Positions 67-26,733 are shown, counted from the stretch's first letter. The stretch: DNA of 56,321 nucleotides from Eubacteriales bacterium (GCA_045652135.1 JAZRTS010000163.1:1-56321), one strand, 5' to 3'. A program made the numbers and translations. The notes: generated by a model from the sequence alone, not told the origin.

Positions 67-68
67 CA

Positions 69-221
69 ATGATGTTTGCCTTCGGCAAATGATGACGGCT
101 ACGCCTAATGATGTGTGCCCAACGGCACATAGAGGCAAACATCGCATCATTGCGGAACGGAGTGGAGCAACATCATATTTGCGAAGCAAATGCATCATAT
201 CGCCGCAAGGCGATGCATCAT
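69..221. repeat. Hexamer-punctuated hairpin array A (ATGATG x3, then CATCAT x4)
   Basis: ATGATG at 69, 89 and 108; CATCAT at 145, 171, 193 and 216. The spacers fold as short hairpins at 75-89 (TTCG loop), 114-129, 177-191 (GCGAAGC mini-hairpin) and 199-214 (GCAA loop). Confidence 0.75.
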
Positions 222-250
222 TTGACAAATGTGCGAATTTATAATATAAT
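222..250 (+). promoter_or_regulatory. Consensus sigma-A promoter for the four-helix-bundle gene
   Basis: TTGACA (222-227), 17-nt spacer, TATAAT (245-250), 27 nt upstream of the ATG at 277. Confidence 0.75.
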
Positions 251-276: not shown

Positions 277-630
277 ATGAAAGAAAATAAACTCGTCAAG
301 CTTTCAATGGACTTTTCCGTTGATATTATAAATCTCGTTAAATATTTGAAAAGTATCCACGAAACAATCATCGCAAACCAGATCGGCAGAAGCGGCACCT
401 CGATTGGCGCCAATATTCATGAAGCGCAATACGCGCAAGGCACAAAGGATTTTATATCTAAATTCGAAATTGCTCTTAAAGAAGCAAGTGAAACGGGATA
501 TTGGCTTGAGTTGCTTTATAGAACGAAATATATTGATGAGCAAGCTTTTAAAACACTCTCCTCAAAATGCACTTCGTTACGAGTGATGCTGATTGCCTCT
601 TGTAAAACGGTGAAGGAGAACACGAAATGA
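277..630 (+). CDS. Four-helix-bundle protein (23S rRNA intervening-sequence protein family, TIGR02436-like)
   Basis: The ORF track gives 265..630 with a GTG start, but the ATG at 277 lies 11 nt after GGAGG (261-265). It is ~117 aa and helical, with the family-typical SIGANIxEA segment. Confidence 0.8.
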   Translation: MKENKLVKLSMDFSVDIINLVKYLKSIHETIIANQIGRSGTSIGANIHEAQYAQGTKDFISKFEIALKEASETGYWLELLYRTKYIDEQAFKTLSSKCTSLRVMLIASCKTVKENTK

Positions 631-1207: not shown

Positions 1208-1210
1208 CAA

Positions 1211-1386
1211 CGAAATAATAAATCCCTAACGGGATTTGTGAAATATGCTGCCTCATATGAAATAGCTAACGCTATGAAATACGTAGCTTGCGTATGAGGG
1301 ATTTATTTAATTTCACTTTCTGCGCAAGCAGAAAATTTCATAATCCGTGAGAATTATTTCATATTTTCCGCGAGGAAAATATTTCA
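1211..1386. repeat. Heptamer-punctuated hairpin array B ((A)TGAAAT x4, then ATTTCA(T) x4)
   Basis: Forward motifs at 1212 (degenerate), 1239, 1258 and 1275; reverse-complement motifs at 1310, 1335, 1356 and 1381. Spacer hairpins at 1220-1237 (7 bp, TAAC loop), 1263-1274 (TAAC), 1279-1295, 1317-1334 (7 bp, GCAA) and 1363-1380 (7 bp, GCGA). Confidence 0.8.
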
Positions 1387-1477
1387 TTAAAATCTATCAC
1401 TCCGTCAACAGCAAAATATCACTAAAAGTTTGTTATTTAAAGAATCGAAGTTATAAAAACGCAAGGGAAAACACGGA

Positions 1478-4621: not shown

Positions 4622-6184
4622 TTATTCACATTTACCTGCACGTACAGCCTCGAAATCTTCTTCGATTTCTTTTGAAGGTGCTTTTGTCAGAAGTGAAACA
4701 ACAACGATGCAAACACACGAGAATATGAACGCAGGAAGAAGCTCATAAATTGCGAACACGCCGCCTATCTTGCTGAGCACGAGCTTCCAGAAGAATACCA
4801 TAAACGCACCGCTTATCATACCTGCGACAGCACCGGGCTTATTGACACGCTTCCAGAAAAGTGAGAATATCATAATCGGTCCGAATGTTGCACCGAATCC
4901 CGCCCAAGCAAAGGATACTATTTCAAATATAACGCTGTTTTCATCAAGTGCTATAACAATACCGATAGCGGTAAGAACAAGAAGCGTGATACGTGAAACG
5001 TTCATAACCTGCTTGTCGCTTGCGTTTTTCTTGAATACTCCCTGGAAAACGTTCTTTGAAAAAGCAGATGCGGCAATAAGCAGATATGAGTCTGACGAGC
5101 TGATAGTCGCCGCAAGAATTCCTGCCATTACAAAGCCTGCGAGAATGGGGGGAAGGAATGACTCTGACATAAGAATGAATATGCTTTCCGCTGATGACTT
5201 TGTCAAAAGTGCATCGGGGAAAAGCTGACGTCCGACAATACCTATAAATACCGCAACGGCAAGGGATATAACTACCCAAACCATAGCAATTCTGCGTGAA
5301 CGCTTAAGTTCTTCTTCCTTACGTATAGCCATAAAGCGCAAAAGTACCTGAGGCATACCGAAGTAACCGAGGCCCCATGCCATCATTGAGAAGACGCTGA
5401 GCAAGCCGTAATTTGCAGCCTCACCGAATACGGGCTTACCGCCTTCAAGGAGCTGTGTTCCCGCTTCGTTAACAGTAGGTGTTGCAAGTCCGAAAAATTC
5501 GAAAAATCCGGGGATAGCCTTTGCATTGTCAACGACAGCGCCGACACCGCCTGCCTGTACCACGCCGATTATAACGATAACAGCGAGCGCCACTATCATA
5601 ACAATAGCCTGCATAAAGTCAGAAGCACTTTCAGCCAAAAATCCGCCGAGTATCGTATACACAAGCACGAACACCGCACCTACGATAAGCATTGCCTGAT
5701 AAGGAACACCGAACAATGTTGAAAAAAGCTTTCCGCATGTTACAAAGCAGCTTGCCGCATATACCGTAAAGAATATAAGTATAAACAAAGCCGAAAGAAG
5801 CATTATATGCTTGTTCTTTTCTCTGAAACGGTTTGAAAAGAAATCGGGAAGTGTAATCGAGTTATTAGCCCTTACACTGTAGCGCCTTAAACGCTTTGAA
5901 ACGATAAGCCAGTTAAGGTATGTACCTACCGCAAGACCTATAGCCGTCCAAGCGGCATCCGCAAGACCGCACCAATAAGCAACACCGGGGAGTCCCATAA
6001 GAAGCCATCCACTCATATCCGATGCCTCAGCACTCATCGCCGTTACCCAAGGACCGAGTGAACGACCGCCGAGAAAATATTCTTCAGAGCTTTTATTGGC
6101 ACGCTTCGCATAGAAGACACCGATCATAATGACTGCTGCCATATATATGACCATTGCAATCAAAATCTGAATTGTATCATTCAT
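4622..6184 (-). CDS. putP: Sodium:proline symporter (SSF family)
   Basis: 520 aa and polytopic. N-terminal YFLGGRSLGPWVTAMSAEASDMSGWLLMGLPG is typical of PutP. GGAGG RBS. Confidence 0.85.
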   Translation of the reverse strand: MNDTIQILIAMVIYMAAVIMIGVFYAKRANKSSEEYFLGGRSLGPWVTAMSAEASDMSGWLLMGLPGVAYWCGLADAAWTAIGLAVGTYLNWLIVSKRLRRYSVRANNSITLPDFFSNRFREKNKHIMLLSALFILIFFTVYAASCFVTCGKLFSTLFGVPYQAMLIVGAVFVLVYTILGGFLAESASDFMQAIVMIVALAVIVIIGVVQAGGVGAVVDNAKAIPGFFEFFGLATPTVNEAGTQLLEGGKPVFGEAANYGLLSVFSMMAWGLGYFGMPQVLLRFMAIRKEEELKRSRRIAMVWVVISLAVAVFIGIVGRQLFPDALLTKSSAESIFILMSESFLPPILAGFVMAGILAATISSSDSYLLIAASAFSKNVFQGVFKKNASDKQVMNVSRITLLVLTAIGIVIALDENSVIFEIVSFAWAGFGATFGPIMIFSLFWKRVNKPGAVAGMISGAFMVFFWKLVLSKIGGVFAIYELLPAFIFSCVCIVVVSLLTKAPSKEIEEDFEAVRAGKCE

Positions 6185-6216: not shown

Positions 6217-6246
6217 ATTATATCATAAATATACAATAAATGTCAA
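6217..6246 (-). promoter_or_regulatory. Sigma-A promoter for putP
   Basis: On the minus strand: TTGACA (6246-6241), 18-nt spacer, TATAAT (6222-6217). Confidence 0.7.
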
Positions 6247-6290
6247 TATCTTTTAATATAATCATAATTTAAGATTGCCCTGTATATTAA

Positions 6291-6465
6291 TGAAATCGTG
6301 CGGAATTGCTTCGCACAATGAAATCCTCACTTTGTTCGGATGAAATCTTCAGCCTACGGCTTCAGATGAAATTAAATCCACCCATCCGCCGTCGAGGCAG
6401 ATTTCATTCCCGCAGGGAATTTCATCGTCGAATACGATTTCACCCACCCGCAAGGGTGGATTTAG
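6291..6465. repeat. Heptamer-punctuated hairpin array C ((A)TGAAAT x4, then ATTTCA(T) x4)
   Basis: Forward motifs at 6291, 6319, 6341 and 6367; reverse motifs at 6401, 6419, 6437 and 6460 (the last degenerate, ATTTAG). Spacer hairpins at 6298-6316, 6407-6419 (GCA loop), 6424-6438 and 6444-6459 (GCAA). TAAATCCACCC (6373-6383) is perfectly complementary to 6454-6464. Confidence 0.8.
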
Positions 6466-6470
6466 TTGCA

Positions 6471-6500
6471 AAAAGAGCAAGTCATATGACTTGCTCTTTT
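6471..6500. terminator. Bidirectional terminator after tRNA-Ser
   Basis: Perfect 30-nt palindrome aaaagagcaagtcat/atgacttgctctttt. Confidence 0.8.
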
Positions 6501-6503
6501 CTC

Positions 6504-6594
6504 TGGCGGAGAAGCAGAGATTCGAACTCTGGAACCCTTTTACCGGTTACACGATTTCCAGTCGTGCGCCCTCGACCAACTAGGCGACTTCTCC
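6504..6594 (-). tRNA. tRNA-Ser (anticodon GGA)
   Basis: The reverse complement reads ggagaagtcgcctagttggtcgagggcgcacgactGGAaatcgtgtaaccggtaaaagggttccagagttcgaatctctgcttctccgcca. It is 91 nt with a long variable arm, a GTTCGAATC T-loop and an encoded CCA. Confidence 0.9.
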
Positions 6595-25119: not shown

Positions 25120-25542
25120 TCAGCACACAAGAAATCCTATAACGGGGCCTGCAAATATAGCGAGATATATAAGAGTTATCCACGGCTGATAATCTATGTA
25201 AAAGCCCTTGAATGACAAGCTCCACGGATGCTTTATAATAACCCATCCGAACACATCGAAAACAATGCAGATACATGCCCATATTGCACCTGTAATTAAA
25301 GCCTCGCCCAGTGAAGGTGTCTGCAAGCCGTTCATATAAAGATAACCGAATACCGAAAACAGTATTACATTGTATAAGGGGTGCCACGGCTTTGTTTTTT
25401 CGTACCCCTCGCCCATACTTTCGCTGTCCATCGGCTTCATGTGAAGTACATATATGTTAAAAACCGTATGAAGTATCCCTATAGCGGTAACTATAGCATA
25501 AGATACCCAAAAATAAAGCATTGACATTCCGAAATTTTGCAT
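25120..25542 (-). CDS. Hypothetical membrane protein (140 aa)
   Basis: Four hydrophobic helices. The RBS is weak and the exact start is uncertain (M1, M6 or M8). Confidence 0.5.
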   Translation of the reverse strand: MQNFGMSMLYFWVSYAIVTAIGILHTVFNIYVLHMKPMDSESMGEGYEKTKPWHPLYNVILFSVFGYLYMNGLQTPSLGEALITGAIWACICIVFDVFGWVIIKHPWSLSFKGFYIDYQPWITLIYLAIFAGPVIGFLVC

Positions 25543-25560
25543 GATAAGTTTCTTTTTGTA

Positions 25561-25648
25561 TGAAATCTTCAGCCTATGGCTTCAGATAGAATAACTTTCG
25601 TTTTAATATCGGCAAGAAAACAAGCTCACCGATAAATTGGAATTTGAC
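25561..25648. repeat. Copy 1 of a ~90-bp dispersed repeat (D1)
   Basis: Near-identical to 26186-26276. It starts with (A)TGAAATCTTCAGCCTATGGCTTCAG, also present in array C at 6341-6365, and ends with ACCGATAAATTGGAATTTGAC. Confidence 0.85.
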
Positions 25649-25656
25649 CTGAAAAA

Positions 25657-26073
25657 TCAGGCTTTTGTTTCGTAAATAAACAGTATTTCATCAATGATAG
25701 CATATAACACACTTTTACCGACAAGATCTTTGGCCTCATCGTGGCTGAAATATGCAGAGGACCAATACTCGTTGCCATCAACCTTTACGACAACACTACC
25801 CGTACGCTGGAAAAAACCGGCTTCCCAATTGGACACGACGCCTTCAACGGGGGTGTAGCGTTCACACTTATTTTTAAAATTAAGGTACATAACAAGGTAA
25901 TACACTGCGGGAAGCAATGTACAAACACCATTGATTGCAACTGTGATAAACAGAAAGATTCCGGTTTCGAGTGCGCTCGTCAACCAGCCAAACAACAAAA
26001 AAACTTCTATAAAAGCGAAAAGGGCAAACCATTTTAACGTGGTTTCCAGGTATTTACTTAAAGATAGTTTCAT
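25657..26073 (-). CDS. Hypothetical membrane-anchored protein (138 aa)
   Basis: AAAGAGGT RBS. Two N-terminal TM helices are followed by a ~60-aa soluble domain. Confidence 0.65.
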   Translation of the reverse strand: MKLSLSKYLETTLKWFALFAFIEVFLLFGWLTSALETGIFLFITVAINGVCTLLPAVYYLVMYLNFKNKCERYTPVEGVVSNWEAGFFQRTGSVVVKVDGNEYWSSAYFSHDEAKDLVGKSVLYAIIDEILFIYETKA

Positions 26074-26142: not shown

Positions 26143-26185
26143 GTCTTGTGCCTTGTATAACATCAATATCAGAGAACAGCAATAA

Positions 26186-26276
26186 TGAAATCTTCAGCCT
26201 ATCGGCTTCAGGCAGAATAACTTTCGCTTTTTAATTTCGGCAAGAAAACAAGCTCACCGATAAATTGGAATTTGAC
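26186..26276. repeat. Copy 2 of the ~90-bp dispersed repeat (D2)
   Basis: Differs from D1 by a few substitutions and short indels. It abuts the stop codon of the SMI1/KNR4 gene. Confidence 0.85.
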
Positions 26277-26280
26277 AGCA

Positions 26281-26718
26281 TCACACCTCGTTATTGTAAT
26301 ACTTGGTTATCAAATCGGAAATATCCTTAGCAACCTCACGAATTTCAAAAAGCTCATGTTCCCAAATATATATTGCTGATGTATCCGTTTCGTCATTGGA
26401 AAGGACACGATAGCAGTAATAATCACCACAACCATTTGATGCAAAATAAACAAAACGGTTTACTTTTTCTTCAAATTCATCAGGCTCAAAGTATTCAGCC
26501 ATTATCTCACGATTTCTCTTTACATTGCTGATGATTTCTTCTGCAGAAAGCAGAAACCAACGGTCTCCATTAGTTTCTCGCAATAAGGCTTTCAATTCTT
26601 CAGGAAAGGTAAAACCAACATATTTCTCGGCTTTCTTAATTTGTTTTTCCGGGCAAGGTTCTTGTAACTTTGCCCAATCATGCCCCTCTATTAGTTTTCC
26701 AATAAGTTCTCTATACAC
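26281..26718 (-). CDS. SMI1/KNR4 (SUKH-1) family protein, immunity-protein-like
   Basis: KKAEKYVGFTFPEELKALLRETNG matches the SMI1_KNR4 signature. The GTG at 26718 lies 8 nt after GGAGG; the track start at 26733 overlaps that RBS. Confidence 0.75.
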   Translation of the reverse strand: MYRELIGKLIEGHDWAKLQEPCPEKQIKKAEKYVGFTFPEELKALLRETNGDRWFLLSAEEIISNVKRNREIMAEYFEPDEFEEKVNRFVYFASNGCGDYYCYRVLSNDETDTSAIYIWEHELFEIREVAKDISDLITKYYNNEV

Positions 26719-26733
26719 GATAAAAACCTCCAC

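Follow-up and report, generated by a model that had tools for sequence, protein, structure and literature searches.

An inverted hairpin array behind a tRNA-Ser gene of a gut bacterium contains the Gut-1 RNA motif in a full doublet form

Array C is a mirror array of 7-nt words and short hairpins that lies behind a tRNA-Ser gene in a 56,321-nt stretch of DNA from a Eubacteriales bacterium (GCA_045652135.1, JAZRTS010000163.1:1-56321), the whole of which is referred to here as the window. One half of the array matches the Gut-1 RNA motif (Rfam RF01706), and array C is a typical member of that family in full doublet form. The explanation we favor, with a probability of roughly 0.45, is that the 'Gut-1 doublet' is a dispersed structured intergenic repeat family of uncultured gut Oscillospirales, with array C as one copy. 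It is quite probable that the element is, or recently was, mobile or duplicative, homing just behind terminators and above all those of tRNA genes, and it seems fairly likely, if less so, that the conserved fold acts in single-stranded form and in the sense orientation. The acting strand would be RNA from read-through of the terminator or, alternatively, DNA, with the coding strand exposed as the template for lagging-strand synthesis, and the fold would be a cis-signal for the propagation or maintenance of the element itself. A side effect could be that the stable hairpin block keeps a highly active tRNA gene and the next promoter apart, much like the repetitive extragenic palindromes and bacterial interspersed mosaic elements (REP/BIME).

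Array C includes the Gut-1 RNA motif

The minus strand of positions 6396-6468 matches the Gut-1 covariance model end to end with 65.4 bits (E-value of 7.8e-11 over the whole window; 4e-13 is also given), and as the curated gathering score is 50 bits, this half of array C is a member of Gut-1 RNA by covariance-model score. The model consists of four UGAAAU words and three hairpins, and alignment to it shows the three hairpins and the GUGAAAU linkers, with compensatory changes among 54 distinct sense-half hairpins. The forward half of array C scores 18.5 bits on the plus strand, and array B, a sister array at 1208-1387, has scores of 38.4 and 36.6 bits on its two strands, below the gathering score.

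Gut-1, a motif from gut microbiomes for which neither a function nor a host is known, was described in 2010 (Weinberg et al. 2010, PMC2864571). The Stockholm flanks of the 2010 seed alignment already show an inverted second half, with the words GUGAUAU and then AUAUCAC, and one seed flank has a tRNA 3' end and terminator upstream (PMC2864571). The inverted half, the closing helix, the tRNA and terminator context, the word variants and the link to intervening-sequence protein (IVP) genes all go undescribed in the paper and its supplement (PMC2864571), and we found no papers on Gut-1 or RF01706 after the 2010 description in the literature searched. The published motif and array C are alike in having three short hairpins, GUGAAAU-type linkers and gut-microbiome relatives, but the motif is only half of the element, whereas array C shows the doublet.

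Rfam types Gut-1 as 'Gene; sRNA' (small RNA), which is not supported by the promoter and terminator positions. In the arrays examined there is no consistent promoter on either strand and no room for one between the terminator T-run and the first word, which touches that T-run, and from this we infer that the doublet is not a free-standing sRNA gene. An opposite-strand sRNA ending at the bidirectional terminator was also considered and rejected as a general explanation, as there is no consistent promoter for it.

Coordinates and polarity of array C

Exact copies of ATGAAAT begin at 6290, 6318, 6340 and 6366 on the plus strand and are followed by the reverse words ATTTCAT (6401-6407 and 6419-6425), ATTTCAC (6437-6443) and ATTTAG (6460-6465). 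A segment TAAATCCACCC (6373-6383) is the exact complement of GGGTGGATTTA (6454-6464) and the pairing overlaps the hairpin at 6444-6459. An earlier, sequence-only reading of the window had described this 4+4 design, its placement behind tRNA-Ser, four local hairpins and the 11-nt complementarity, and most of this stands: all four hairpins can be located in the sequence, the complementarity is exact, and the placement is borne out by ARAGORN and typical of the family. The 4+4 words are present, although three of the forward coordinates given for them were off by one (6318, 6340 and 6366 are correct). The mirror design is conserved across the family and recurs in dozens of other genomes, and is not a local accident. 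What the sequence-only reading did not know is that half of the array is a catalogued motif and that its polarity follows the upstream gene. Array C sits downstream of the tRNA-Ser gene because that gene is on the minus strand, with the h0 terminator of the gene directly adjoining the array (Table 1); the polarity of array C is thus that of the minus strand, and the half previously called 'reverse' is therefore the first, closed module.

The window contains 41 copies of ATGAAAT where 18.6 +/- 4.0 are expected (none of 100 shuffles got to 41), and clusters of GAAAT/ATTTC in the order ++++--- occur in only two places within the 56 kb.

Anatomy of the Gut-1 doublet

We collected 35 doublets from two genome scans and a word-agnostic detector, which requires at least three copies of a 6-mer and then at least three copies of its reverse complement. 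In the window this detector finds three arrays, at 67-221 (array A), 1208-1387 (array B) and 6288-6468 (array C). When oriented by the upstream gene, all 35 doublets share one reading order. It begins with a long GC hairpin (h0), usually an A-run/T-run bidirectional terminator of the upstream gene, and the first word contacts its T-run or h0 itself. Then come CAACGAAAT, x, a loop and a', which make up hairpin 1, followed by GTGAAAT, h2, GTGAAAT, h3, GTGAAAT, h4 and GTGAG, and by x', which is a' plus ATTTC. The 11-bp helix that shuts the closed module pairs the first word and the 5' arm of hairpin 1 with a second copy, at the centre of the doublet, of the 3' arm of hairpin 1. The inverted module reads TTTCAC, h5, ATTTCAC, h6, ATTTCAC, h7 and ATTTCAC-T, with the next promoter beyond it. 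Spacers are ~11-14 nt in the sense half and ~15-21 nt in the antisense half. Within one array all of the words are alike and the second module holds their complement; between arrays, even in one genome, the word varies (RTGAAAT, AATGATG, ATGAAGC, GTGAAATC and GUGAUAU). Solo modules also occur.

Several variants of this arrangement are present at related loci (given here by L numbers). In a flipped variant (L100 987-1130, L466 5248-5390 and L504 1500-1645) the words are exchanged as compared to array A: CATCATT words, with GNA loops, lie in the closed module next to the terminator, and AATGATG words in the distal one. At L089 3300-4000 there is a tandemly duplicated block in which ATGATG-type and GTGAAAT-type modules converge on a common terminator, so the halves of a pair need not carry complementary words; a 'ladder' fold with obligatory pairing of forward and reverse words is weakened by this locus and by the solo modules. 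The terminators beside the arrays (34-67, 1183-1207 and 6470-6500 in the window, and at most related loci) are unusually symmetric, of the form AAAAAAGC-stem-GCTTTTTT, and could therefore stop transcription from both directions. Mirror word arrays are also found in unrelated phyla (L153 2266-2514 in Bacteroidota; L540 3093-3346; L430 and L490), but these non-Gut-1 arrays, e.g. TCGTGA 5+5 or ten TCAATG plus three CATTGA, are without hairpin spacers.

Table 1. Features of array C, its sister arrays and their neighbors in the window
Feature	Coordinates	Strand	Evidence and remarks
Sister array A	67-221	+	Same design, word AATGATG/CATCAT; behind tRNA 3' end (1-33) and terminator (34-67)
Promoter at end of array A	222-250	+	12/12 match; abuts array A; drives IVP gene 277-630
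Four-helix-bundle (IVP) gene	277-630	+	PF05635/TIGR02436
Sister array B	1208-1387	+	RTGAAAT/ATTTCAY; behind terminator 1183-1207
Na+/solute symporter gene	4622-6184	-	Pfam SSF, 7e-92; downstream of array C
Sigma-70-type promoter (TTGACA, 18 nt, TATAAT, with TG)	6217-6246	-	12/12 consensus match; serves symporter gene
Array C, whole doublet	6288-6468	-	Closed sense module plus inverted antisense module
Inverted 'antisense' module	6288-6372	-	Sequence; homologous modules in 30 other arrays
Antisense-module ATTTCAT words	6366-6372, 6340-6346, 6318-6324, 6290-6296	- (reading)	Sequence
Antisense-module hairpins	6347-6365, 6325-6339, 6297-6317	-	Sequence; first two with tandem G.A on minus strand
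Closed 'sense' module (Gut-1 RNA motif)	6373-6468	-	RF01706 match, covariation, fold energy
Hairpin 4	6384-6400	-	Closed module; then x' 6373-6383
Hairpin 3	6408-6418	-	Closed module; then ATGAAAT 6401-6407
Hairpin 2	6426-6436	-	Closed module; then ATGAAAT 6419-6425
Hairpin 1	6444-6459	-	Closed module; then GTGAAAT 6437-6443
Degenerate first word CTAAAT, carrying x	x 6454-6464	-	Within closed module
Hairpin h0, intrinsic terminator of tRNA-Ser	6470-6500	-	Sequence and fold; 12-bp stem 6474-6497, flanking A-run and T-run
tRNA-Ser(GGA)	6504-6594	-	ARAGORN; Rfam tRNA 56.4 bits; upstream gene setting array C polarity
Solitary array C unit (tandem-G.A hairpin and flanking word)	25555-25592	+	87% identity, 38 nt
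Second solitary unit	26185-26217		Shared 18-mer

Two competing helices covary

In 30 of the 35 arrays x and x' are exact complements of 9-15 nt, ~80 nt apart and on one strand only, and there are about ten different x sequences among them. In array B, for example, x (AATAAATCCCT, 1217-1227) pairs with x' at ~1299-1309. We tested covariation on an alignment of 25 sense modules from other genomes. In the long-range helix x:x' 94.6% of the cells are paired and 8 of 12 pairs have changed on both sides, giving a covariation score reached by none of 500 shuffles; in the local hairpin 1 95.3% are paired and six of seven pairs are compensated. Hairpin 1 and x:x' have six alignment columns in common, and since both of the competing helices covary, mutually exclusive folds are a trait of the family. 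The competition between a long-range helix and a local hairpin that had been proposed for array C is thus conserved. For array C the minimum-free-energy fold is the closed state, at -42.9 kcal/mol, and blocking x' raises this to -33.7 kcal/mol. All of 30 modules favor the closed over the x'-blocked state, by ~6 kcal/mol on average, and in 26 of them the closed state has the minimum free energy or lies no more than 1 kcal/mol above it.

Two mutually exclusive conserved pairings are what is expected of an RNA switch. However, the 'switch-like' behavior previously suggested for the array is a structural possibility only, as the array follows a strong terminator and has neither its own promoter nor an expression platform. 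A riboswitch has its expression platform in a 5' leader, whereas array C follows a terminator and precedes a promoter, and no downstream element overlaps the alternative pairings; we infer that array C is not a ligand-sensing switch.

A broader proposal is that the doublet is a structured RNA, either stand-alone or part of a read-through transcript, that undergoes a conformational switch, and we regard this as rather unlikely. Hairpin 1 would fold first; once x' had been transcribed, it would invade this hairpin from the free GAAAU toehold, thereby closing the module. Each state would have its own activity, for example in protein or RNA binding or in blocking an exonuclease. The Rfam match above the gathering score, the covariation of both helices, the thermodynamically favored closed state and the constant orientation relative to the upstream gene all fit such an RNA. 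So do, in the sense half, closing U.G pairs and some loops of the cUUCGg type and, in the antisense half, GNRA-type loops and tandem G.A pairs. However, cUUCGg is not the usual loop of the sense half, where most are GCTTCGC and thus complementary to the DNA mini-hairpin GCGAAGC, G.U pairs are virtually absent from the stems, and the arrays lie behind strong, often bidirectional terminators with neither room for a promoter nor an expression platform after them.

Transcript data bear on the same question. One 247-nt RNA-seq contig covers a related array exactly and without mismatches (L159 4137-4382), with the flanks uncovered, which favors an RNA; its depth is 2 as compared to 90 for tRNA (one RNA-seq run), and the RNA evidence amounts to about two reads. 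No public sequencing run contains the window itself, the runs having at most 16% of its words, and an RNA search with L144 found only tRNA words. We note that in run X25 a second contig matches part of L159 4284-4325 and then runs into a different Gut-1-type unit (...GTGAAATTTTCCGCTTGCGCGGAAG), which suggests that another array of the community is also present in RNA.

Stems, loops and strand preference

The stems of the 54 distinct sense-half hairpins contain 223 Watson-Crick pairs with no G.T and no A.C, and those of the antisense half, counted over 432 pairs, 421 Watson-Crick, four G.T and five A.C. Neighboring terminators have four G.T and no A.C in 232 pairs, and because they too are G.U-poor the test is blunted; the asymmetry of G.U and A.C was discarded as uninformative for discriminating RNA from DNA. 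The strands differ in two other respects. First, a tandem G.A motif (ATCGAnC...GnGAGAT) that is stabilizing on the sense strand only is conserved in the first hairpins of the antisense half; it is present in at least 16 hairpins, always on the sense strand, and in array C the two examples are CUGAAGCC-GUA-GGCUGAAG and CCGAAC-AAA-GUGAGG. Second, when the two strands of a hairpin are compared, the sense version is more often the more stable one, with counts of 43 versus 8 for hairpins of the sense half and 42 versus 28 for those of the antisense half. Both features argue for action in a single sense strand.

The loops on the 'RTGAAAT' strand are TTC, TGC, TAC and TTGC, and on the other strand GAA, GCA, GTAA, GTTA and GCAA, closed by C-G. 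The latter set corresponds to GCGNAGC/GCGNNAGC, the consensus of DNA mini-hairpins of extraordinary stability. Mini-hairpin DNA of the types GCGNAGC and GCGNNAGC is present at single-stranded DNA priming signals, including the phage G4 and St-1 origins and ssiA/ssiB of RSF1010 (Kimoto and Hirao 2026, PMC13037366). The array hairpin tops fit this consensus on one strand per module, and the two modules are opposite-stranded like ssiA/ssiB. The arrays differ from these priming sites in being chromosomal, in having tens of copies, and in that their hairpins are interleaved with conserved heptamers.

In genes that are oriented with replication, the sense strand serves as the template for lagging-strand synthesis, and it is conceivable, although unlikely, that the doublet is a signal in single-stranded DNA whose hairpins fold on that template, i.e. 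the coding strand of co-oriented tRNA genes. It could act in priming or restart, as a site for a hairpin-recognizing HUH or tyrosine recombinase, or as an attC-like cassette junction, and with one module per strand the signal would be independent of which strand is exposed. Nearly all hairpins are C-GNA-G or C-GNNA-G on one strand (GCGAAGC, GCGTTAGC, GCGTAAGC, GCGCAAGC), which is the mini-hairpin consensus of the priming sites, the stems are perfectly Watson-Crick without wobble, and the inverted doublet recalls the RSF1010 ssi pairs; the position behind strong terminators without a promoter, and tandems of array, cassette and array that begin at a tRNA in the window, L100, L116 and L152, point the same way. 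However, solo modules exist, there is no linked integrase, primase or HUH gene, integron core sites are absent, and the strands are not equivalent, given that tandem G.A pairs are confined to one of them.

Integron attC sites, too, are structure-conserved, sequence-variable inverted-repeat sites at the ends of small cassettes, with conserved 7-nt border boxes and strand-specific features in single strands. However, the cassettes beside Gut-1 doublets have their own promoters and the anchor is a tRNA gene and not attI, RYYYAAC/GTTRRRY cores are absent from the arrays, and there is no integrase among the 25 of 83 Pfam families listed for the window.

Genomic position and hosts

The relatives of the window symporter are from Oscillospirales metagenome-assembled genomes (MAGs) of animal guts, at 80-87% amino-acid identity; an exact-protein look-up of this symporter gave no record. 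A centre 18-mer, GGATTTATTTCATTTCAC, is present in more than 120 species-representative genomes, nearly all of them labeled as uncultured gut Clostridia and often with several contigs per MAG, and module density is ~1 per 170 kb in unbiased DNA of the group. An origin in phages or plasmids was also considered: in viral contigs the word pattern matches 117 loci, of which one doublet (L210) was inspected and confirmed and L264 is flagged as a second hit, and a link to phages was rejected.

The 95 arrays of the 18-mer sample were not selected for context and are independent of the first sample. A co-directional tRNA gene ends within 90 nt upstream in 40 of them, representing 20 isoacceptors, and there are no adjacent upstream tRNA genes in the opposite orientation. 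The remaining arrays follow protein genes of many kinds. At the other end, the -35 hexamer of the next promoter starts directly after the last word in six arrays.

Comparison of 80 symporter loci shows that synteny is mostly lost. One syntenic locus, L012, has tRNA-Ser(gga), the homologous terminator, the promoter and the symporter but no array. The sequence-only reading had named absence from orthologous loci as a refuting condition, and such absence is what the sole syntenic orthologous locus shows. Yet the family is widespread at other loci, and the array is family-conserved and not locus-conserved. The spacer at L012 3893-3925 contains TTTTCAACGA, the same as the canonical left array junction, followed by the palindrome TTTTTCGAAAAA; this could be chance, a remnant or a target.

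There is further evidence for movement or duplication. Array A and the L035 array are clearly homologous yet lie behind different tRNAs. Copies within a genome are up to 95-98% identical, also across contigs, as compared to 77 +/- 6% between genomes, and the duplicated unit spans h0 to just beyond the last word (L116, L152 and L332/L345). An orthologous locus without an array, together with near-identical copies at different loci, indicates a dispersed and probably mobile element. With regard to miniature inverted-repeat transposable elements (MITEs), the outermost words are inverted (A-RYGAAAT ... ATTTCAC-T), and no flanking direct repeat was seen in the duplicated copies. At four loci (the window, L100, L116 and L152) tRNA, array, small gene cassette, terminator and array lie in series; in the window these are array A, the IVP gene with a 162-aa open reading frame (ORF), array B, and a DUF6678 gene with a 207-aa ORF. 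The 162-aa ORF has no family match and is overlapped by the IVP gene (277-630). At L152 5185-5260 a tRNA-like T-arm fragment (GCGGGTTCGAATCCC...), for which there is no ARAGORN call, lies behind the second, near-identical array and may be a displaced tRNA 3' piece that marks an island boundary.

Solitary units are also present in the window. The segment 6335-6372 of array C is 87% identical over 38 nt to 25555-25592, and one 18-mer is common to array C and to the copies at 25555 and 26185. These copies open two repeats of roughly 90-120 nt, at 25555-25650 and 26185-26276 (48 nt at 98% and 18 nt at 100%), each starting with a single homolog of the array C tandem-G.A hairpin. The repeats lie between tandem paralogous small ORFs (25120-25542, 25657-26073 and 26281-26733, minus strand), which have no NCBIfam match. 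The link between array C and the 25.5 and 26.2 kb positions that had been drawn earlier is real as to the shared unit, but the tie to an accessory island is not established, as the link consists of one hairpin unit.

Linkage to intervening-sequence protein genes

A co-directional gene of the PF05635/TIGR02436 'four helix bundle / 23S rRNA intervening-sequence' type lies within 160 nt behind 17 of 114 arrays; of the 19 loci with such a gene, 17 have it directly behind an array. The array and IVP module is found after at least ten different tRNAs. The IVP clade tracks the repeat word: proteins of the 'MAESKLRELSTDF...' clade are encoded behind RTGAAAT arrays in 15 clearly typed cases, with less clear typing at L410, L394 and L144, and those of the 'MKENKL..LSM(D/E)FSVDIINL' clade behind ATGATG arrays in the window and L529, with L504 a probable third (by eye). 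Our literature search on IVP function gave nothing useful. The family includes bAvd of diversity-generating retroelements, a nucleic-acid-binding pentamer, which we take as a lead and not as a result.

The arrays at L124 and L146, which have the same IVP gene behind them, were compared by eye, without a computed count. Their words are unchanged, their hairpins have changed with compensation, and the flanking non-coding DNA is much more diverged than the arrays. Words that are unchanged while spacers drift are what would be seen if the doublet were a double-stranded operator or iteron array in which a protein, perhaps the adjacent IVP, binds the 7-bp words and regulates the abutting promoter, and the covariation of IVP clade with word type and the -35 hexamers placed directly after the last word are consistent with this. 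We nonetheless find it very unlikely. Duplex binding leaves the perfect hairpins, the specific loop types and x:x' unexplained, the words are spaced by 18-28 bp, out of helical phase, 85% of the arrays have no adjacent IVP gene, and ATGATG and RTGAAAT arrays are present in the same genome, 1 kb apart in the window. Iterons, moreover, have one word throughout a replicon with irrelevant spacers, whereas the spacers here are constrained to hairpins with specific loops.

A more speculative scheme, which we consider quite unlikely, is that the doublet provides the cis scaffold for a hitherto unrecognized type of mobile element whose target is the 3' flank of tRNA genes. Autonomous copies would encode the bAvd-like IVP, which as an oligomer would bind the words or hairpins of the folded strand, and arrays lacking IVP would be non-autonomous derivatives and the junctions of tRNA-anchored cassettes. 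If true, this would be the first clue to how intervening-sequence proteins have ended up in stable-RNA genes.

Relationship to known repeat families

Among the closest known systems are the REP/BIME of enterobacteria, which are thought to act as folded single strands and to buffer neighboring transcription units. Like REP/BIME and the REPIN doublets, Gut-1 doublets are multi-copy small palindromes with short conserved linkers, extragenic and just 3' of genes, with inverted units and a presence that varies between relatives; they form extragenic 3' clusters of alternating orientation in many copies. However, REP hairpin sequences are conserved genome-wide, whereas Gut-1 doublets conserve only the 7-nt linkers and the geometry. 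A conserved palindromic unit is lacking, as the hairpins differ among arrays A, B and C and among genomes, and nothing in REP corresponds to the strong preference for tRNA terminators or to the fixed 4+4 design with its closing helix. We know of no RAYT transposase for these genomes, of which the 56-kb window and 8-kb loci were covered, and the RAYT (Y1 HUH) family is not among the 25 of 83 Pfam families listed for the window. The best-supported view is that the doublet is REP/BIME-like in behavior but is not a member of REP/BIME.

Several observations weigh against a dispersed repeat family as the explanation of array C. No transposase or recombinase was identified, and there is none among the 25 of 83 Pfam families just mentioned. 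Neither a target-site duplication nor a sharp comparison with an empty site was obtained, the intergenic region of L012 being too diverged to align. The persistence of homologous arrays between species with compensation, as at L124 and L146, fits long vertical residence and host-level selection as well as it does mobility, and hairpin sequences differ between copies far more than in classical REP or MITE families. The stems have no G.U enrichment or strand bias and so do not distinguish RNA from DNA as the type of strand, the RNA evidence from L159 is weak, and the insulator role is pure conjecture. Other candidates were dropped from the sequence, including a tRNA-like cloverleaf, C/D-box or K-turn, cre or Rex operator, NusG pause motif, readings of the words as start or stop codons, and Tn7-like end arrays, none of which fits all of the word variants or the hairpin constraint.

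Significance

Gut-1, an orphan 'sRNA' in Rfam since 2010, now gains hosts, the uncultured gut Oscillospirales, and its full anatomy, that of an inverted doublet in which hairpin 1 competes with a covarying helix that closes the first module. It also gains a genomic rule, in that the arrays share the orientation of the upstream gene in all cases and lie behind terminators, ~40% of which belong to tRNA genes, and a linked protein family, with IVP genes often behind the array and their clade tracking the repeat word. These findings argue that the Gut-1 family is a REP-like or mobile single-strand element and not a regulatory sRNA, and the question of what Gut-1 is becomes a testable one. Should the link to IVP turn out to be functional, it would also inform the question of how intervening-sequence proteins become associated with stable-RNA genes.

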